Below are positions 30,746-61,243 of a stretch of 64,000 nucleotides of DNA, piece by piece. Source of the DNA: a virus; the IMG/VR virus record IMGVR_UViG_3300025645_000060, positions 4,947-68,946 of that record, one strand, 5' to 3'. Position numbers and translations under genes: made by a program. How positions within the stretch are numbered: position 1 is the stretch's first letter; each line of letters begins with the position of its first letter. The notes below the pieces were generated by a model. That model worked only from the letters and a program-made list of their open reading frames with translations. It was not told where the DNA came from and searched no databases.

Positions 30746-31126
30746 ATGAGAATAAACAATTCAAAAGCCACCGTAAGAGGTGAAGAGATCATCCTAGAAG
30801 GGATGCCAAATGTAAATATTGAGACTTTAGCCTACTTAAACAGAGCATTTAATCATGAGCATAGAAAGAAGATAATAAGTGTCATACTAGAGAATGATAA
30901 CAAATTGTCTGTTAAAGAGATATTCGTTCTGTCTGGATCATACTCTCAACCTGCCACATCTCAACACCTAGCAATACTGAGAGCGGCAAACTTGGTCACA
31001 TCTAAAAGAGGCGAGTACTCTATACTGAATGGTTCTTTTAACTACTACTCCGTAAATGTTGATTATCTAAATCGTGTGGCTAATGCACTAGAAAGTATTT
31101 CTGAACCATTTAAAACTGAATCATGA
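30746..31126 (+). CDS. ArsR-family HTH regulator
   Basis: RAFNHEHRKKII...SQPATSQHLAILRAANLV. Confidence 0.85.
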   Translation: MRINNSKATVRGEEIILEGMPNVNIETLAYLNRAFNHEHRKKIISVILENDNKLSVKEIFVLSGSYSQPATSQHLAILRAANLVTSKRGEYSILNGSFNYYSVNVDYLNRVANALESISEPFKTES

Positions 31127-43457: not shown

Positions 43458-43624
43458 TAACTTCAGTTTTTTTGTATGAAATAACAGACACTAACCCTAA
43501 TTTGAATGGCTTGGTGAGTTATATCTAATTCACTTTGTATACTTTTTTAGACTTATCTAGTACCCCAACTTCTTGCTCGTGGTCAATGATACGAACTAAT
43601 ACGTGAGGAATACCATTTAAGTAC

Positions 43625-44032
43625 TTAATTCTCTTCCTCTTTGCCATATATATCTTCTTTAAATTCTTCATAACGTATAAAATATCTTATATTCTGAAAA
43701 TCTGAGCCAAAACCTCCATTGTACATCATCACCAACTGACTCTCAGTCGGCTCAAATCCATACTCTCTAGTAAATCTAGTATGTAGTATCTTTAAATACC
43801 CCTCTGCAACCACATAAGCCTTCTTGTAGTCAAGCATTTCTTCGTGTTGATAACAGTAGCCGTAAGTGTCGTTAACGTCTTGTAGTGCCGCCCTATGTAT
43901 CTGAAATGCCCCAATAGCATCAAAGTCGCAACTGTACTTGTTCCAATCTCCCATTGCACATGGATCACTATTACTTTCAATTACAGAAATCACAGAAAGT
44001 ATTATTGGTATTAATTTAATCATTTCTCTCAA
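43625..44032 (-). CDS. lysozyme/SLT-like muralytic enzyme
   Basis: VIES...AIGAFQI...YNGG; hydrophobic N-terminus. Confidence 0.65.
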   Translation of the reverse strand: MREMIKLIPIILSVISVIESNSDPCAMGDWNKYSCDFDAIGAFQIHRAALQDVNDTYGYCYQHEEMLDYKKAYVVAEGYLKILHTRFTREYGFEPTESQLVMMYNGGFGSDFQNIRYFIRYEEFKEDIYGKEEEN

Positions 44033-44133
44033 ATCTATTTATTTAGAAAGCGCATATGCAATAAGCATCCATAACGCCAATTGACTTAACACTAAAAATT
44101 CCATCATATTGTTTTATATTTTAGTTAAAAAAA

Positions 44134-44191
44134 AGATAACAGCCGATAAGATTCAACGCTAAAAAGCGCAGAACTTATCTATTCGTTTTTT
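44134..44191 (+). mobile_element. attC-like site 1 (A-tract class)
   Basis: GATAAC...GATAAG(A)TTC-CGCT/AGCG-GAACTTATC...CGTT hairpin. Confidence 0.65.
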
Positions 44192-44279
44192 TGCCTTCAA
44201 CACGTGCTTATAGAATCGGCACAAAGCCTGTTCATATCTTTGCTTTGCTGAACTATTAGCATAAGTACCATAAAAGTTT

Positions 44280-44474
44280 TCATTTCTTAAAATTTTCAAT
44301 TAAGTAATCTCCTACTGATACTTCGTGCGGCTTTCCACTATTTCTTCCGTACCTTTCTTTATATTCTTTAATAATCTGATTCGCTTTTGCTTCGAGATTT
44401 TTATTGCCGATTATTTCCTCTAGTATATCTAATAATTTAATATACTTTTCTTTCAATCTGTTTTTTAGTTTCAT
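44280..44474 (-). CDS. hypothetical protein, possible cassette cargo (MKLKNRL...)
   Basis: Lies between attC-like sites 1 and 2; the longer ORF call runs through site 2 and another gene. Confidence 0.5.
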   Translation of the reverse strand: MKLKNRLKEKYIKLLDILEEIIGNKNLEAKANQIIKEYKERYGRNSGKPHEVSVGDYLIENFKK

Positions 44475-44499
44475 TGTATTTATAGTTGAGTTTGTGAAA

Positions 44500-44556
44500 A
44501 AATAACAGTCGAAGATCATGCCATCGGAAAGGACGGCAGATTTCTTAGCGTTGTGT
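44500..44556 (+). mobile_element. attC-like site 2 (A-tract class)
   Basis: AATAACAGTC-GAAGATC-TGCC...GGCA-GATTTC...CGTTGTGT. Confidence 0.7.
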
Positions 44557-44562
44557 GTAATA

Positions 44563-44772
44563 CTAGCAACTACCATATCTGAAACTACCAAATCCTTCAC
44601 CATCGCATTCCTCATCTACAAAGAATCCAAGTTTATCAAGTTCTTCAATATCTTCCTTACTTACTAATTCAGGGTTTATATCTACATAAAAGTAGTCGTG
44701 TTCACAATGGCTTGGGTTTCTTGGGTTGCCATATTTTAAAAGGATTTGTAATGCTTTAATTAAATCTTCCAT
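44563..44772 (-). CDS. cassette cargo, small acidic protein
   Basis: Fills cassette 44551-44898. Confidence 0.7.
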   Translation of the reverse strand: MEDLIKALQILLKYGNPRNPSHCEHDYFYVDINPELVSKEDIEELDKLGFFVDEECDGEGFGSFRYGSC

Positions 44773-44809
44773 CTTATTTATTTAGTTTGTGGCTTAAATT
44801 CCGTACTAC

Positions 44810-44904
44810 ACACAACAATGTATATAGTTTATAAGCCAATTAATATTTGTTTTCAATTGTAATTTTCTGCTATGGCTTACAAAACCATATACTCAACGTT
44901 AGTA
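44810..44904 (+). mobile_element. attC-like site 3
   Basis: ACACAAC-AAT-GTATATAGTTTATAAGCCA...TGGCTTACAAAACCATATAC-TCAAC-GTTAGTA. Confidence 0.85.
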
Positions 44905-44943
44905 ACAATTATTTTTTTTTGCCACCAAGCAGTACGCACTTAC

Positions 44944-45411
44944 TCAATCGTTATTATAATGCTTTAAATAAGGCTGTTCTTTTTTGGTACATTTCTTTTT
45001 CCATCGTTTGTCTAAAAAGATTATATATCTAAATTGTCTTAGTGTTTCTTTTGTGGCTTTCTCTTTAAAACCACGCCTTTCCAACTCAGCCTTTTTATTT
45101 CGGTTGTTATTCGTTATTAAACTATTATGGTATGTTTTCCCCTCAAAGTTCCAGAAAGTACTTGTATGCTCACCAAAATAACTAAAATTAGCCGCTTGGT
45201 AAACAATACCTAAACCTCCACACCGTTCATCTGCAAAACTTTGAATCCACTTAACAGTCTTGTATTTACCTTTAATGTATTTTATGCTATAACTTATGGC
45301 TTTACTTTCTGTATTTTTAACAGCCTTATCATCAAACCACATTCTATTAAGTTCCTTGTATTGGTTTAGTTTCGTTCCTGTAACTAAAGAGCCTCCGCTT
45401 TGTGGGTTCAT
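44944..45411 (-). pseudogene. Mom-like/GNAT DNA-modification protein, apparently 5'-truncated
   Basis: ELNRMWFDD...ESKAIS...IQSFADERCG..GIVYQAANF; the N-terminal part and a closing attC are missing. Confidence 0.55.
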
Positions 45412-45555
45412 AGCATTATGCCGTTTACCTCAGTCATGTATTCTTTAAAAGTCATATTCTCGTTATTTATACCGCCTCAGACGGTGTTTAGCTTTTTCGT
45501 TATCACATAAGTTAACAAACATAAATTAATGTAAACATATCTGACTACATTTTGA

Positions 45556-45655
45556 AATGGAGTAGCGATTAAAGTTTCACCTCAATAACCACCACTCCAA
45601 ATAACCTGCCTTGGTAGCGACTCCAGAACATCAAATGATGCAACGACAGCAGCGA
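45556..45655 (-). ncRNA. candidate structured RNA, copy 1
   Basis: Homologous to 59911-60012; G.U-containing stem around GAGGTGAAAC. Confidence 0.65.
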
Positions 45656-45660
45656 CTCAG

Positions 45661-46053
45661 CTAAGAGTCGATATCTTTAAATATATTTTCCAAGTCTTTC
45701 TTTAAATACTCGTAGTTCAGTGCAGTATATCTAAGAACCTTCCATCCTAGTATAGCTGCGTTATTGTACTTTTCGCAATCTTTACTGTAGCCTGTAATGG
45801 AAGTGTGTCGGCTCTTATGTCCTACAATTCCCTCATACTCTATAGCCACATTGATACTCAGTATAGCAACATCAAATCTCCATCGCCTAGTCTTGTGGAA
45901 TCTATGTTCTTCTACGTAGGCTATTTCCATCTCGTCAAGTATGTTCAGTATATTAACCAAACCAACAGGTCTATTGTCAACTAGATCTTCCGCTCCTTTT
46001 ACTCTGCGCCCTTTATTCTTTAACTTCTCTACATCCTTTTTAGTCCATTTCAT
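45661..46053 (-). CDS. PD-(D/E)XK nuclease (DUF559-like)
   Basis: EHRFHKTRRWRFDVA...AIEYEG...KYNNAAILGWKVLR. Confidence 0.8.
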   Translation of the reverse strand: MKWTKKDVEKLKNKGRRVKGAEDLVDNRPVGLVNILNILDEMEIAYVEEHRFHKTRRWRFDVAILSINVAIEYEGIVGHKSRHTSITGYSKDCEKYNNAAILGWKVLRYTALNYEYLKKDLENIFKDIDS

Positions 46054-46075
46054 GTAACAAAAATACTAAAAAAAA

Positions 46076-46134
46076 AAATAACAGTCGATGAAGATTCAAC
46101 GATAAGAATCGCAGAACTTATCTCTTCGTTGTGC
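46076..46134 (+). mobile_element. attC-like site 4 (A-tract class; head of the main array)
   Basis: Near copy of site 1; ends CGTTGTGC. Confidence 0.75.
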
Positions 46135-46139
46135 GCAAT

Positions 46140-46367
46140 TTAAGCAACATCTGCACTTTTATAGTCAGAAGGCTCAAATCCTGCGTTCCAAAAAAATAGT
46201 GTACCTCTTTTTAGTTTCTTTTTTGTGTCTTGATGCTCACATTCTACTTTCCTTTTTTCAATCGGTTTTTCGCACCTCTCACCATCTGAATTGATGAAGT
46301 AAACCAAGTCGCCTTCTTTTACTTCTTTACCATTTGATAATTTTGTCTTTTTAAATAATCCGAACAT
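46140..46367 (-). CDS. cassette cargo, paralog of 47324-47554
   Basis: Cassette 46129-46503; FINSDGERCE...GTLFFWN. Confidence 0.75.
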   Translation of the reverse strand: MFGLFKKTKLSNGKEVKEGDLVYFINSDGERCEKPIEKRKVECEHQDTKKKLKRGTLFFWNAGFEPSDYKSADVA

Positions 46368-46378
46368 AATAAAACTGC

Positions 46379-46509
46379 GCACAACATTGTATATAAATCA
46401 GTGGCGTTGTACGTCTTTTTAACCACTTTTAGCTGTTTTATTTAGTTTAAGCGTGTTGGCAATCTATCAGCTATTAATCGCCACCGCTTCATATACTTAG
46501 CCGTTATCT
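46379..46509 (+). mobile_element. attC-like site 5
   Basis: GCACAAC-ATT-GTATATAAATCAGTGGCG...CGCCACCGCTTCATATAC-TTAGCC-GTTATCT. Confidence 0.85.
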
Positions 46510-46516
46510 ACAATAT

Positions 46517-46705
46517 CTATTTTGCCGCCCTCTTATATGTATTCACCCACACAAACCTTCTGCATATATAACAAAATACCTGTGTATTGCCCGTTTTAAT
46601 TTGCTTGTCTGCCCAATCGAACCATTGGTTATAACCATCTGGTTCTTTCATCTGATGTTTTATATGTGGGTGTACACATATTGTGTCTTTCTTTTTAAAG
46701 CACAT
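46517..46705 (-). CDS. cassette cargo, small Cys/His protein
   Basis: Cassette 46504-47028; EPDGYNQWFDWA...CYIC. Confidence 0.65.
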   Translation of the reverse strand: MCFKKKDTICVHPHIKHQMKEPDGYNQWFDWADKQIKTGNTQVFCYICRRFVWVNTYKRAAK

Positions 46706-46925
46706 ATTTATATACTATATATTCATTTATAAACTTGTACATATGGTCTAATCTCCAACCACCTTTAGTTTTCCATAGCCATGTAGTATAATCTTTTAGT
46801 ATTTCAATTTCTTTTTTTTTGTATTTACCTTCTACTATATTGATAATCTCGTCAATATCGCCTTGTAATAAGGTGACATTATGATTGTCTGCCATATAGT
46901 CAAATAGGTCTTGATTTTCCTCCAT
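46695..46925 (-). CDS. cassette cargo, hypothetical protein
   Basis: Second gene of cassette 46504-47028. Confidence 0.65.
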   Translation of the reverse strand: MEENQDLFDYMADNHNVTLLQGDIDEIINIVEGKYKKKEIEILKDYTTWLWKTKGGWRLDHMYKFINEYIVYKYVL

Positions 46926-46978
46926 AATTTGATTTTTTTAATTTTAAAAAAGCTCCGCAGCTAAAAAATAGATACTGT

Positions 46979-47034
46979 AGATAACAGTAGATACGATGTC
47001 ATACGAGTACGACACATATCATCTGCCGTTACCA
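46979..47034 (+). mobile_element. attC-like site 6
   Basis: AGATAAC...GATA-TGTC-TAC/GTA-GACA-TATC...CGTTACCA. Confidence 0.8.
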
Positions 47035-47040
47035 ATAATA

Positions 47041-47223
47041 CTAAATTTTAGTACTATCAATTAACTCGTTGTATTCTTCAATCCACTCAATAGGTATTTT
47101 CATACTTGCATCGTAGTATCTTACAATTGCACCTCTTACTTCTTGTAGCCTTTCAAGTCTATTTACAAACTTAGGTTTCAATCCTATTGGTGGCATTTCT
47201 ACTTTTTCGTGTTCTTTTTTCAT
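47041..47223 (-). CDS. cassette cargo, small phage protein
   Basis: Cassette 47029-47313; PPIGLKP...IPIEWIEEYNEL. Confidence 0.7.
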   Translation of the reverse strand: MKKEHEKVEMPPIGLKPKFVNRLERLQEVRGAIVRYYDASMKIPIEWIEEYNELIDSTKI

Positions 47224-47264
47224 CTTTTCTATTTATTAAGTTATTTCTATTTAATCCGTACTAT

Positions 47265-47319
47265 TGGTAACAACACCTATACGCCATACAAATACAGGCG
47301 CATAGCCAAACCGTTATGC
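47265..47319 (+). mobile_element. attC-like site 7
   Basis: TGGTAAC...CTATACGCC...GGCGCATAG...CGTTATGC. Confidence 0.8.
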
Positions 47320-47323
47320 GCAA

Positions 47324-47554
47324 TTAAACAATAAACGCATTCTTGTAATCTGAAATATTAAATCCAATATTCCAGAAAAACAAAGTTCCTTTTTTCAGCC
47401 TTTCACCAGTATCATTGTGTGTTGTCTTAAATTTCCTACATTGTATTAAACCTTCGCATCTTTCACCATCTGAGTTTATAAAAGCAATCTTATCGCCTTC
47501 TTTTACCTCAGTACCATTAAATAGTTTTGTTTTTCTTTGCTTAAATAAGTTCAT
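47324..47554 (-). CDS. cassette cargo, paralog of 46140-46367
   Basis: Cassette 47314-47660. Confidence 0.75.
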   Translation of the reverse strand: MNLFKQRKTKLFNGTEVKEGDKIAFINSDGERCEGLIQCRKFKTTHNDTGERLKKGTLFFWNIGFNISDYKNAFIV

Positions 47555-47572
47555 AATCAACCAATTAACGGC

Positions 47573-47666
47573 ACACAACATTGTATATAGTTAATGCGCC
47601 AATGAAGTTGAGTGCTTAATTCAATCGTTTGTTGTAGGCGCACTAACCATATACCTACCGTTGTAC
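47573..47666 (+). mobile_element. attC-like site 8
   Basis: ACACAAC-ATT-GTATATAGTTAATGCGCC...GGCGCACTAACCATATAC-CTACC-GTTGTAC. Confidence 0.85.
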
Positions 47667-47670
47667 GCCA

Positions 47671-47934
47671 TTAAAGCCTACTCCCCCAATAATCATCCCA
47701 CAACTCTTGGTAATATTCATAGCTTTCTTGTTGGCAGTATTTGCAACCTATTGCATAATTGCTTTCTTCATCTACATAAGCAGTATTCATTCTGTACCTT
47801 TTGGGGTATAAAAACCATCCATGCAAGGGGCAGTATCCCAACGCCCACCACACAAAACGGCGTACAACAATAAATAAACGCAATTGTTTACGCTCTTTCT
47901 GTTGCTTATGTGTTATATTTTCAAAGTCTTTCAT
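47671..47934 (-). CDS. cassette cargo whose 5' part overlaps attC site 9
   Basis: Cassette 47661-47973; probable ATG in the attC loop. Confidence 0.6.
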   Translation of the reverse strand: MKDFENITHKQQKERKQLRLFIVVRRFVWWALGYCPLHGWFLYPKRYRMNTAYVDEESNYAIGCKYCQQESYEYYQELWDDYWGSRL

Positions 47935-47979
47935 TTTATCAAATTTAGTGTTCAACTGCGTTTATTATCAACGTTACCT
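47862..47979 (+). mobile_element. attC-like site 9 (abuts the terS stop codon)
   Basis: GTACAAC...AATAAACGCAATTG...CAACTGCGTTTATT-ATCAAC-GTTACCT. Confidence 0.85.
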
Positions 47980-50227: not shown

Positions 50228-50267
50228 ACAAATATAACTATTTATTATTTAATGTCTTTTTCGCTTA

Positions 50268-50486
50268 ATGTGTACATAGTGTACATGATGTACGTTGAAA
50301 TCTCTATTAGTATATAGAACTGTATATGTATATATATATATATATACATACGCTTTATTATATAAATATATATAGAAAAGGTATGTACACTATGTACACA
50401 TTAGCTTATAGCTATATATACAAGGCGTTTCAAGGTGTACATACCTTAGATTCAACTATGTACAAGGTATGTACACTATGTACACT
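50268..50486. repeat. putative replication origin: TGTACAC iterons around a (TA)n tract
   Basis: AAGGTATGTACACTATGTACAC at 50378-50399 and 50464-50485; inverted copies near 50270 and 50435. Confidence 0.7.
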
Positions 50487-50493
50487 TTTAGCC

Positions 50494-59649: not shown

Positions 59650-59910
59650 ATGCGGACAAAAAAAGAAATCCAAGAACTAGGAATGAATATAGTAGAATCT
59701 GCCAAGAATGTAAGTTGGAAAAATGCAGAGCAACTCCATCGAATAACTAAGAATATCTACTACCTCGAACGCTCTATTCAGTTACTAGACCAGTATCCAT
59801 CAAAAATAGATCTACTATTCTTAAAAGCTCAACTAGCAACATCAAAAGATAAAGCAGACAAAACAACTGTTGATTGTATTAATTACATTCTAAAGATATC
59901 GGCTCATTGA
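59650..59910 (+). CDS. hypothetical protein
   Basis: ORF. Confidence 0.55.
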   Translation: MRTKKEIQELGMNIVESAKNVSWKNAEQLHRITKNIYYLERSIQLLDQYPSKIDLLFLKAQLATSKDKADKTTVDCINYILKISAH

Positions 59911-60012
59911 GCTGGTGCTGTCGTTGCAGCATTTTGATGTTCTGGAACGCTACCAATTAGGCAGCTTTATGTGGGGAGATGATCACGAGGTGAAACGTGG
60001 TTGTTTCCCTAT
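59911..60012 (+). ncRNA. candidate structured RNA, copy 2
   Basis: Homologous to 45556-45655; 16-bp G.U-rich stem around AGGTGAAA. Confidence 0.65.
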
Positions 60013-60753: not shown

Positions 60754-60969
60754 TTAATGATCACAATTTATTTGCTCGATCTTGAATTCTAGCACTAAAA
60801 TCTGATGCTGTAGATCAGCTATTAACTCATTACATTCTACATATCTAGTTATATAGGAGTCCTGTCTTTCTATTGATAAGTTCCATACACCTAATATCTC
60901 TCCTACTAATCCAGTAGACACAATAGTAGCTAATATAGCCAACCAATTACTTTTTATTTTTTCCCTCAT
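60754..60969 (-). CDS. single-TM lysis-associated protein
   Basis: N-terminal TM plus coiled coil; next to the endolysin. Confidence 0.55.
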   Translation of the reverse strand: MREKIKSNWLAILATIVSTGLVGEILGVWNLSIERQDSYITRYVECNELIADLQHQILVLEFKIEQINCDH

Positions 60970-60989
60970 ATCTAAGTTTCTATGTACTT

Positions 60990-61024
60990 AAAAAAATTCA
61001 CCCAGCAGATATTCCGCTGGGTGA
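60990..61024 (-). terminator. intrinsic terminator
   Basis: TCACCCAGC/GCTGGGTGA plus U-tract. Confidence 0.7.
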
Positions 61025-61030
61025 TATTAC

Positions 61031-61243
61031 TTACTTAATTGGTTCGTCAATTACGTGCCTCTCTGGATTCTTAATGAACCCATAAATAGTTAAAGCAAAA
61101 CCTATTATAGTTTGTACTGCTCCCCATATAGAGTCTAGGTTCTGGTTCACGAAGCTAAAGATATCTACAAAATTATCCAATCCAAACAAAGTTAGTACTG
61201 TACCAACTGCTGTTAAGATATGTCTCAATGCACTTTTTTTCAT
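61031..61243 (-). CDS. small two-TM holin-like protein (phage B copy)
   Basis: Close paralog of 2738-2947. Confidence 0.65.
   Translation of the reverse strand: MKKSALRHILTAVGTVLTLFGLDNFVDIFSFVNQNLDSIWGAVQTIIGFALTIYGFIKNPERHVIDEPIK

Follow-up and report, generated by a model that had tools for sequence, protein, structure and literature searches.

Integrons are the textbook example of recombination guided by the structure of DNA and not its sequence. Their attC sites form imperfect hairpins, about 57-141 bp long and framed by AAC and GTT triplets, and the choice of strand is attributed to bulged bases that are recognized by an insert specific to integron integrases.

The sites in the 64 kb stretch of phage DNA analyzed here (the window) resemble the classical sites attCaadA7 and the Vibrio repeats, as characterized in the available text of Nivina et al. 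(2016; PMC5027507), in forming an imperfect hairpin on one strand with R-box AAC/GTT and exchange in or at GTT, in having an unpaired central spacer, an inner (L) stem and a variable loop, and in a cassette-specific R pairing that is regained in the circle. According to the same text, classical attC recombination favors the bottom strand. Phage arrays are reported in a Front Microbiol 2023 study (PMC9892861), the accessible portion of which gives 17 CALINs in 10,705 phage genomes, two sites in Polaribacter phage P12002L, and recombination of a P12002L attC site with attI1 under IntI1 on the bottom strand only. The window array is similar in being a recombinase-less cassette array within a lytic-type phage genome; an extended stem, a non-pair at position 11, gene inversion and phage-encoded recombinases are not described in that portion. 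The P12002L genome (L105) carries arms with the signature defined below at 30952/31120 and 14622/15197, and the site assayed with IntI1 is possibly not one of these. In the excerpts of the literature at hand, Bacteroidota are portrayed as almost integron-free.

We assign a probability of about 0.75 to the reading that the arms in the window are the R stems of attC-like recombination sites in mobile cassettes. By their signature, these sites form a distinct attC-like family. The same signature apparently marks an integron-like gene-capture system in Bacteroidota bacteria and phages that has been overlooked.

The window array and its arms

All GTT/AAC pairs 100-2500 nt apart in the 64 kb window were scanned for ungapped complementarity of at least 12 nt with no more than one mismatch. 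The scan yielded ten pairs, five of which lie in the reported region: 44550/44816 (14 nt), 46128/46385 (14 nt), 46503/46985 (21 nt), 47028/47271 (14 nt) and 47660/47868 (13 nt). Each has its single mismatch at position 11 (counting from the C of AAC), with A on the left arm and C on the right arm of the + strand, which reproduces the original observation of five cassettes with 13-21 nt arms and a sole mismatch of C against A. A more degenerate cassette had also been said to keep the C; this unit (47313/47579) is mismatched at positions 4, 7, 10 and 11 and retains A/C at 11. The start of the last cassette, previously implied to be at about 47651, is placed at 47660 by the scan. The other five pairs are unrelated 12-13 nt arm pairs. 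A further pair with A/C at position 11 (49430/51430) was taken as a chance match, lying within coding genes, starting with GTTT and having no adjoining hairpin. The array is laid out as follows.

43482-44552, + strand: left array part, with further AAC-hairpin-GTT sites at about 43482-43520, 44137-44192 and 44503-44552
44550-44563, + strand: cassette A, left arm (GTT plus 11 nt, A at position 11); pairs over 14 nt with 44803-44816, the sole mismatch being position 11
44563-44772, - strand: cassette A, gene (69 aa, no family)
44803-44816, + strand: cassette A, right arm (AAC end, C at position 11)
44814-44900, + strand: cassette A, attC-like hairpin (AAC, 81 nt, GTT; its GTT opens the next cassette)
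44898-46130, + strand: middle stretch lacking matched arms; it holds a Mom-family gene (44944-45411), a second gene (45661-46053) and a hairpin site (46081-46130)
46128-46141, + strand: cassette B, left arm
46140-46382, - strand: cassette B, gene (80 aa, homologue of the cassette E gene)
46372-46385, + strand: cassette B, right arm
46383-46505, + strand: cassette B, attC-like hairpin (117 nt from AAC to GTT)
46503-46523, + strand: cassette C, left arm (21 nt)
46517-46925, - strand: cassette C, two small ORFs (62 and 76 aa)
46965-46985, + strand: cassette C, right arm (21 nt)
46983-47030, + strand: cassette C, attC-like hairpin (42 nt from AAC to GTT)
47028-47312, + strand: cassette D, whole (arms 47028-47041 and 47258-47271)
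47041-47223, - strand: cassette D, gene; the cassette D hairpin runs to 47315
47313-47662, + strand: cassette E, whole (degenerate arms 47313-47325 and 47567-47579)
47324-47581, - strand: cassette E, gene; cassette E hairpin 47577-47662
47660-47975, + strand: cassette F, whole (arms 47660-47672 and 47856-47868, hairpin 47866-47975)
minus strand: cassette F, gene ending at 47671, with an uncertain start (GTG 47853 or ATG 47934)

Ten AAC-hairpin-GTT sites are present in the window between 43482 and 47975. Arms have lost their pairing in at least three window cassettes, and the left array part (43482-44552) holds two cassettes with arms that are no longer paired. The right arm of cassette E pairs better with the left arm of the next cassette than with its own.

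All six window sites carry the AAC and GTT triplets around an imperfect hairpin, and the family shares the unpaired central spacer. R-box pairing is restored in the circular form, and joints and homology end within GTT, as expected for exchange between G and TT. The classical consensus, RYYYAAC (R'') and GTTRRRY (R'), is not followed except as Y-AAC/GTT-R, and the R stem, 7 bp in classical attC, here reaches 14 bp and has position 11 as an obligatory non-pair. The spacers are unequal (3 nt versus 5-6 nt), whereas the available text of PMC5027507 gives 5-6 nt per arm. No bulged extrahelical bases were seen in the L'' arm; A·C/T·G oppositions 10 and 15 nt from AAC were found instead in a heuristic alignment. 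Unlike classical attC cassettes, the phage cassettes with the signature have their genes on the bottom strand. There is no adjacent integrase with the IntI-specific insert that would make this a complete integron; with at least two sites and no integrase nearby the array is a CALIN, provided that its sites count as attC-like. Rfam gave no matches in the window.

The mismatch recurs beyond the window. In a set of 994,291 bases made up of the window's own record, one named phage and 104 viral loci, 169 arm pairs reach 13 nt or more, and 98 of these have a position-11 mismatch as A/C or as G/T, the latter being A/C seen from the opposite strand. Three shuffles gave 151 pairs in total, 18 of them with a position-11 mismatch of any kind.

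Stem architecture and covariation

Cassettes of relatives were delimited by a hairpin detector, with pairing demanded at positions 1-9 only; both the detector and the fold energies used below are heuristics made for this analysis. The comparison set consists of 58 distinct arm pairs, 43 viral and 15 from bacterial or MAG contigs. Watson-Crick pairs occur among the viral arms in 36/43 at position 10, 1/43 at position 11, 39/43 at position 12, 40/43 at position 13 and 39/43 at position 14, dropping to 15/43 at position 15. The outer stem (R stem) is thus composed of 10 bp, one non-pair and then 3 bp; the usual stem is 14 bp long, and the 21 bp stem is an outlier. The oppositions at position 11 are A·C (37), A·A (3), A·G (1), G·T (1) and A·T (1) in the viral pairs and A·C (11), A·A (3) and A·G (1) in the 15 bacterial or MAG pairs, none of which is paired there.

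The two arms covary at positions 4-10 and 12-14, with position 11 staying unpaired, in keeping with the original proposal of a conserved structural determinant. Position 4 is the sole constrained one (R on the GTT arm); positions 5-9 are free and accept any base across the 58 arm pairs. The partner at position 11 varies (C, A or G) and is hardly ever T, which suggests selection against pairing. Its role may lie in strand choice or in marking the site for a recombinase.

The inner stems align without indels across ten positions in the heuristic alignment; spacers most often measure 3 nt on the 5' side and 5-6 nt on the 3' side. An A on the 5' side opposes a C on the 3' side 10 nt past the C of AAC in 28/43 viral and 12/15 bacterial-contig sites, and 15 nt past it in 30/43 and 7/15, respectively; G·T or T·G on that same strand is almost absent (3 and 3 cases). 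Together with position 11, these two additional conserved A·C/T·G positions make a set of three marks.

Recombinases beside the signature arrays

A PF00589 search for tyrosine recombinases returned no candidates in the window's phage record (68,946 bases; CheckV completeness 72%), and a 93 kb relative rated 100% complete by CheckV likewise has none. Since its record encodes no recombinase, the window array is a recombinase-less cluster that would need the enzyme of a host or co-infecting phage.

For comparison across loci, the signature was defined as pairing at ten positions, then A/C or G/T at position 11, then pairing at positions 12-13. It was found in 11/23 arm pairs beside long Xer-like recombinases of Bacteroidota, in 42/162 beside short recombinases on viral contigs and in 92/307 in viral loci located via the hairpin motif, but in 0/86 beside canonical integron integrases, where position 11 is Watson-Crick in 67/86. 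These counts favor the earlier suggestion of a distinct attC family. The further suggestion that pairing past 7 bp sets the family apart did not hold: canonical-integrase arrays (TIGR02249 over the cut-off) of the same GTDB phylum also have cassette-specific GTT/AAC arms well past 7 bp, with uninterrupted arms of 11-16 bp (46 arm pairs with at least 11 uninterrupted pairs versus six in five shuffles). Examples of canonical-integrase arrays are found on a Melioribacteraceae chromosome (G008) and at L135; the sites of an example array are about 270 nt long and its genes lie on the top strand.

In Bacteroidota genomes, recombinases of 374-396 aa are followed on their 3' side by a palindrome, 5-7 nt, GTT and then the signature cassettes. 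In viral loci with a recombinase of 266-277 aa, signature arrays lie immediately upstream in 21/80. The array-linked recombinases contain PF13495 and PF00589, match NF040815 ('site-specific tyrosine recombinase/integron integrase') with 215-233 bits for the bacterial and 170-198 bits for the phage proteins, and reach about 200 and 145-163 bits against TIGR02249, which has a cut-off of 265 bits. In comparison with XerA/XerCD-type recombinases and IntI4 (PDB 4a8e and 2a3v), they align colinearly with XerA and lack the IntI4 segment 183-246, whose 64 residues are matched by just 21. The bacterial form has an additional ~100 N-terminal residues with no Pfam match. Judged by sequence, the recombinases associated with signature arrays are not canonical integron integrases.

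These results bear on the possibility that the sites are ordinary attC sites of canonical integron integrases and that the position-11 mismatch is a neutral mark inherited within a lineage. The AAC/GTT ends, the unpaired spacer, the inner stem, the variable loop and the distance between triplets (37-120 nt in the 58 sites) are all as this would have it, canonical integrases are common in the wider phylum (114/401 genomes sampled), and the P12002L site worked with IntI1 in the experiment reported in the accessible portion of PMC9892861. We nevertheless consider it unlikely, given that the signature is missing beside canonical integrases and that the adjoining recombinases lack the integron-specific segment; persistence in at least 58 distinct arm pairs with compensated neighbors would also be unexpected of a neutral mark.

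Strand asymmetry and cassette exchange

The circular-form sites were reconstructed and both strands were folded with DNA parameters. The bottom (T·G) strand gives the more stable fold in 41/43 viral and 15/15 bacterial-contig sites (56/58 overall), with the same preference in all six window cassettes. Best folds of the T·G and A·C strands contain 155 versus 44 G·T pairs in the viral sites and 57 versus 6 in the bacterial sites. The full R stem forms in the circular sites and is lost in the hybrid sites within the array.

Genes occupy the G·T strand in 92/98 phage cassettes and in 41/42 cassettes that adjoin a phage recombinase. With bacterial recombinases as neighbors, 8/11 cassettes code on the A·C strand (the other three have only ORFs of 37-56 aa), and the polarity of the wobble is constant, with A/C on the recombinase strand in 11/11. 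This arrangement weighs on an explanation at the RNA level, by which the mRNA would form a G·U-wobble stem, the hairpins would act as terminators, processing sites or stabilizers, and shuffling would be a by-product of recombination at hairpins. The start and stop codons do adjoin the arms, and G·U pairs would be present in transcripts of the window and of the 92/98 phage cassettes with coding G·T strands; in the 8/11 bacterial cases the mRNA would instead carry A·C mismatches. The T·G strand folds better whichever strand codes, which argues that single-stranded DNA is read, and not RNA, and agrees with the earlier idea of reading on one folded strand. The RNA explanation also leaves the linkage to tyrosine recombinases unaccounted for and does not fit the exact position of homology breaks and contig joints at GTT; we regard it as very unlikely.

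Cassette gain or loss falls exactly at GTT. The cassette A gene (69 aa) recurs with the same arms in other contexts (loci L007/L102 and L020), its homology stopping at GTT on either side, and the homology of cassette B with 47313-47662 (cassette E) starts at the left GTT. Further joints were seen in assembled contigs of public runs from two studies and two samples, one of which is possibly the window's own source; some have short sides (23-30 nt) and the resolution is 4-6 shared letters. In runs X1-X4, contigs continuing past 44900/44901 enter three other cassettes through GTT, seven free bases and then A-T. In X1, X3 and X4, cassette D is missing from some contigs (joint 47025 to 47311, 285 nt skipped, six shared letters, CCGTTA), as is cassette F (joint 47658 to 47972, 313 nt skipped, four shared letters, CGTT, with sides of only 25-26 nt).

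Inverted repeats of 13-21 nt with a conserved starting triplet flank each gene, as terminal repeats would if the units were small transposons or MITE-like elements mobilized by a transposase. The units, however, abut via shared hairpins and their joints have GTT in common; Pfam scans of 30 window ORFs found no transposase, and no target-site duplication was seen at the joints. The arms differ between units and covary, pointing to recognition of structure and not sequence, so that such elements are highly improbable here. Chance complementarity in AT-rich intergenic DNA, for which one might cite the 36% G+C of the window and the five unrelated pairs in its scan, has a negligible claim against the 98/169 recurrences of one mismatch at one position (18/151 of any kind in shuffles) and the empty control loci (0/86).

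For the preferred reading of the arms as R stems of attC-like sites, a cassette would begin with the TT of one GTT and end with the G of the following one. Upon excision as a circle or folding of a single strand, its ends would pair as a 14 bp stem beside the hairpin, with A opposite C at position 11 on the + strand of the window and T opposite G on the other. Since only the T·G strand folds well, the wobbles most likely confine folding and recombination to this strand (the integron 'bottom' strand); they most likely also mark the site for a tyrosine recombinase by structure, and would stand in for the bulged extrahelical bases of classical attC. The recombinase would act on the folded bottom strand and cut in AAC.

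A broader proposal, which we find plausible and evenly poised, is a separate integron-like cassette system of Bacteroidota and their phages that standard finders miss. Its Xer/XerA-like enzyme without the IntI insert would exist in two forms, a long one in bacteria, encoded upstream of the cassettes and in their orientation, and one of 266-277 aa in phages. Three T·G wobbles, one at 10 nt on each side of the AAC/GTT pair and one at 15 nt, would make only the bottom strand recombinogenic, and phages would keep an 'inverted' cassette pool of their own, with genes on the bottom strand, shuffling small ORFans among unrelated phages. The large natural attC-like family seen here has no bulges, has fixed wobbles in both stems and has neighboring recombinases that lack the insert; it would offer a second, independently evolved answer to the strand-selection problem of integrons and a mechanism for the shuffling of small ORFans between phages. 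It also bears on the range of integrons: among the genomes sampled in a single class, 81/301 have homologues of the array-linked recombinase, and viral contigs often carry signature arrays.

The 98 cassette proteins fall into 91 blastp clusters and unrelated genes often lie within identical arms and hairpin, a combination that exchange at GTT alone does not explain. One contig of run X3 links 44495 to 46071, skipping 1575 nt.

Cassette array of the phage record

The virus record is linear, with 68,946 bases (the window being bases 4947–68946), a G+C content of 36% and a CheckV completeness of 72%. Nearly all window genes lie on the minus strand, and they encode, among others, a large terminase, a Mom-family protein, a small-terminase-like protein, a primase/VapE helicase, an HNH endonuclease and a YqaJ-type exonuclease. 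The phage host is likely to belong to the Bacteroidota, since the nearest relatives of the terminase are those of Riemerella phages (44% identity). Between ∼43480 and 47975, small minus-strand ORFs follow one another in a row, separated by hairpins, every one with a left-hand AAC and a right-hand GTT. Neither Pfam nor PHROGs assigned a function to eight of the ten cassette proteins scanned, no Rfam family was found in the window at gathering thresholds and the array DNA has almost no similarity to named phages (four records, 2% cover each). The tyrosine recombinase family PF00589 has no match in the window or the remaining record, even at E ≤ 1; the window array would need a recombinase supplied in trans. 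The Mom-family ORF (window 44944–45480) matches only profile positions 51–200 of 202 with its residues 1–148; as its N-terminal part seems absent or shifted to a different frame, the gene may have undergone truncation or a frameshift. Elsewhere, at window 50263–50492, perfect 21-nt inverted repeats (50266–50286 and 50383–50403, with a third copy at 50469–50492) surround an AT-rich palindrome (50300–50373) between the HNH and primase genes; a possible role is that of an origin of replication or an operator.

The arms were located with a script that compares every GTT/AAC pair and accepts ungapped complementarity of at least 12 nt with at most one mismatch. It returned ten pairs from the window, five of them in the reported array region. 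The arms of these five are 14, 14, 21, 14 and 13 nt long and their sole mismatch is at position 11 (counted from GTT/AAC), with A on the left arm and C on the right, which agrees with the original prediction of 13–21 bp of complementarity broken only at the 11th base. The degenerate unit 47313/47579 has four mismatches and retains A/C at position 11, also as foreseen; its right arm pairs better with the left end of the next cassette. Matching arms were absent from the array cassettes 43518–44139 and 44190–44505 and from the stretch 44898–46130, which holds the Mom gene. A general repeat search of the window recovered only the 21-nt pair of the arms, amid AT-rich noise, and a scan for AAC…GTT in which the best fold had to close on the triplets proved too strict, the unrelated hairpins at 59838–59941 and 60941–61044 being dropped. 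The pair 49430/51430 has 13-nt GTT/AAC arms with A/C at position 11 and covers 2 kb of coding sequence (a GNAT/ATPase gene, the HNH gene and the beginning of the primase gene). Because it starts with GTTT and has no hairpin alongside, this pair was taken as a chance match.

A 14-bp stem with an obligatory non-pair

A 16-letter motif, made from a single right arm and the first part of its hairpin, retrieved 104 viral contigs with ∼45 true hairpin relatives. The count of arm pairs covered 994,291 bases: these 104 loci plus one named phage and the record that contains the window. Among 169 pairs of at least 13 nt, 98 have an A/C or, on the other strand, G/T mismatch at position 11, 12 are free of mismatches and 59 are mismatched in other ways; among the 151 pairs that three shuffles yielded together, 18 are mismatched at position 11, whatever the bases. 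As the count of 98/169 favours pairs with few mismatches, a second set was made from cassettes bounded by a hairpin detector (which, like the stem alignments and fold comparisons, is a script of our own). This set was noisy at first (394 and 112 candidate cassettes, with only ∼40% paired per position) and was made usable by demanding pairing at positions 1–9 only.

The 43 distinct viral arm pairs of this set are Watson–Crick paired at position 10 in 36 cases, at position 11 in one and at position 12 in 39; further out, positions 13, 14 and 15 are paired in 40, 39 and 15. At position 11 the combinations are A·C (37), A·A (three) and A·G, G·T and A·T (one each). None of the 15 pairs from bacterial or metagenome-assembled (MAG) contigs is paired there (11 A·C, three A·A, one A·G). 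The mismatch is thus not randomly placed in the larger set. The left-arm base is A in 42/43 viral and 15/15 bacterial/MAG pairs, and its partner is C, A or G and almost never the complementary T, which fits selection for non-pairing and not for one particular pair. Positions 5–9 accept any base, with compensation by the partner, so that the cores do differ in sequence while position 11 stays unpaired, and the conservation implied by the proposed structural determinant holds. From the per-position counts and the compensation, the family has GTT-R-N5-M-A-T-W as the form of its left arm and W-A-C-K-N5-Y-AAC as that of its right arm; together they make a stem of 14 bp in which one position is obligatorily unpaired.

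Canonical integrons served as a control. Of 401 genomes sampled in the GTDB phylum of a Melioribacteraceae chromosome that carries an integron integrase, 114 have such an enzyme scoring over the TIGR02249 cut-off; this is far above the rate given for the Bacteroidetes/Chlorobi group in the integron surveys consulted. Their flanks have long uninterrupted arms, and the signature (ten paired positions, A/C or G/T at position 11, positions 12–13 paired) is present in 0/86 pairs, which upholds the assignment to a distinct attC family. In the accessible text of Nivina et al. (2016; PMC5027507), classical attC sites have a 7-nt R box, a spacer of 5–6 nt per arm and extrahelical bases, and the words `wobble' and `mismatch' do not occur; the family sites differ in having a 14-bp stem with a non-pair and no bulges. 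According to a 2023 study (PMC9892861), 10,705 phage genomes contain 17 integrase-less attC clusters, and IntI1 activity was demonstrated on a site of P12002L. Signature arms are present in the P12002L genome. For Bacteroidetes, the IntegronFinder papers record integrases without cassettes (In0) only, plus one complete integron in Salinibacter, and a 2024 preprint lists Bacteroidota with clades earlier found without integrons. Full-text searches of the open literature yielded no account of an extended stem with a fixed non-pair, of arrays linked to Xer/IntI-like recombinases or of inverted phage cassettes.

Mobile unit and strand bias of folding

Cassettes 46128 and 47313 share homology that sets in at the left GTT, covers the gene and reaches the first part of the hairpin on the right, with no likeness left of the GTT, and the 69-aa window cassette recurs in three other contigs in which the left neighbours and the post-GTT sequence differ. 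On these grounds the mobile unit is GTT, arm, gene, arm, AAC and hairpin, up to the G of the next GTT, which is the same extent as an integron cassette. Further evidence comes from public metagenome assemblies X1–X4 (two samples, two studies; X1 may be the source of the window), the joints of which, being in contigs and not reads, show that variants exist and not their frequency: 47025 is joined to 47311 in X1, X3 and X4, skipping the 285 nt of the cassette starting at 47028 with six shared letters (best case a 385-nt contig with a shorter side of 103 nt); 47658 is joined to 47972, skipping the 313 nt of the cassette starting at 47660 with four shared letters and sides of only 25–26 nt; and one X3 contig joins 44495 to 46071. 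Contigs matching up to 44900/44901 run on into three other cassettes with the family left-arm start. Crossover at position 11/12 and gene insertion into the AT…AC loops that many short hairpins have were dropped, because the left arm pairs with the right arm of its own cassette, and GTT is where both homology and joints stop. Cassettes that agree in arms and hairpin usually contain unrelated genes (91 blastp clusters among 98 proteins of the viral contigs L001–L104, e.g. L095, L049 and L070), for which GTT exchange alone is an insufficient explanation.

In these viral cassettes the start codons lie 17–35 nt from the right arm and the stop codons in or beside the left arm. Many short inter-cassette hairpins (also 30905–30952 of P12002L) have an apical loop C-ATTAAAAC-G, with an A…C non-pair and then a T-A pair, the arrangement also seen at arm positions 11–12. 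A 29-nt `empty' unit, with arms joined by a loop of this type, is found downstream of sites in L095 and L070.

Each site was rebuilt in its circular form and both strands were folded with DNA parameters. For every one of the six window cassettes, the minus strand gives the more stable fold (e.g. −24.2 versus −18.9 kcal/mol); in the in-array hybrid sites of the window the R stem (the outer arm stem) is gone. More widely, the bottom (T·G-bearing) strand is the more stable in 41/43 viral and 15/15 bacterial/MAG sites, and the best folds of bottom and top strands contain 155 versus 44 G·T pairs (viral) and 57 versus 6 (bacterial/MAG). The inner stem has an A(5′)·C(3′) non-pair 10 nt past the C of AAC in 28/43 and 12/15 sites and 15 nt past it in 30/43 and 7/15; non-pairs of the opposite kind are almost absent and no bulged bases were seen in the inner-stem alignments. 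Most of the unpaired spacers measure 3 nt on one side and 5–6 nt on the other. A two-fold symmetry between the position-11 and inner-stem wobbles was kept as an observation only, because their distances, equal in nucleotides on one strand, are unequal in base pairs from the spacer.

The wobble stems might instead act in RNA, as the bottom strand is the coding strand in 92/98 phage cassettes. However, where arrays adjoin bacterial recombinases, 8/11 cassettes carry their genes on the opposite strand (the remaining three have only 37–56-aa ORFs), yet the polarity of the wobble with respect to the site stays the same in 11/11. Thus, the constraint is tied to the site and not to the transcript, and the proposal that the sites are read as a folded single strand is supported.

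Linked recombinases and proposed mechanism

A gapped hairpin motif, searched on one-genome-per-species contigs, identified 20 stretches, mostly from Bacteroidota and many with signature arms. Robiginitalea aurantiaca M39 has a 374-aa tyrosine recombinase (contig L129, 1171–2295) with the site 1.5 kb downstream of it, and the order is recombinase gene, short palindrome, a few bases, GTT and two same-strand cassettes, each ending in a family hairpin; the layout recurs in Prolixibacteraceae and Eudoraea genomes. Homologues of the recombinase (E ≤ 1e-60) occur in 81/301 genomes of the same GTDB class, including the unpublished G104, which was left out of later comparisons. About 15 are at least 49% identical over their full length and are followed by a palindrome–spacer–GTT site and signature arms wherever the sequence is long enough; for many homologues the contig ends 100–300 bases off on the 3′ side.

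Sites downstream of bacterial recombinases, by contig
L142, L143, L145, L148, L155 (twice): palindrome–spacer–GTT site with signature arms
L149, L153, L114: variant arms mismatched at positions 10 and 11

The bacterial array-linked recombinases match PF13495 and PF00589 and score 215–233 bits with NF040815 (cut-off 220) and ∼200 bits with the integron-integrase model (cut-off 265). Their ∼100 N-terminal residues have no Pfam match and are conserved (1171–1490 of the Robiginitalea array contig L129 and its homologues, alignment A2). These enzymes align colinearly with XerA, whereas IntI4 has 64 residues (183–246) where they have 21; we take this segment of IntI4 to be the region of the integron-specific insert.

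A single bacterial recombinase as query found nothing in viral contigs; an alignment of 14 found 80 viral loci. Signature arrays are present in 21 of these, every one directly upstream of a 266–277-aa recombinase that does not have the ∼100-residue N-terminal stretch. G/T is on the recombinase strand in 42/42 arm pairs, and 41/42 ORFs of these arrays are co-directional. In both layouts, relative to site polarity, the recombinase is at the end where attI would be.

Signature sites, with their 14-bp cassette-specific stem, obligatory non-pair and two inner-stem non-pairs, are therefore linked to Xer/IntI-like recombinases; their folding is strongly biased to one strand and their exchange points are inside GTT. 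In the mechanism that we propose, the recombinase would bind the bottom strand in its folded state, two monomers occupying the 14-bp R stem and the inner stem, respectively, and would cut in AAC in the manner of integron integrases. Wobbles of the T·G kind would make the top strand, with A·C in their place, less prone to fold, and may also be structural marks, standing in for the extrahelical bases that canonical integrases would read with the insert absent from these enzymes.

Further opposite-strand tyrosine recombinase genes lie just past short bacterial arrays in contigs L114 (3660–4916) and L137 (5564–7637 and 11468–13538). Those of L137 comprise two near-identical ORF pairs (390 + 305 aa and 389 + 305 aa) with the same 9-nt arm pair on their flanks, which suggests another mobile element inserted in or beside the array.
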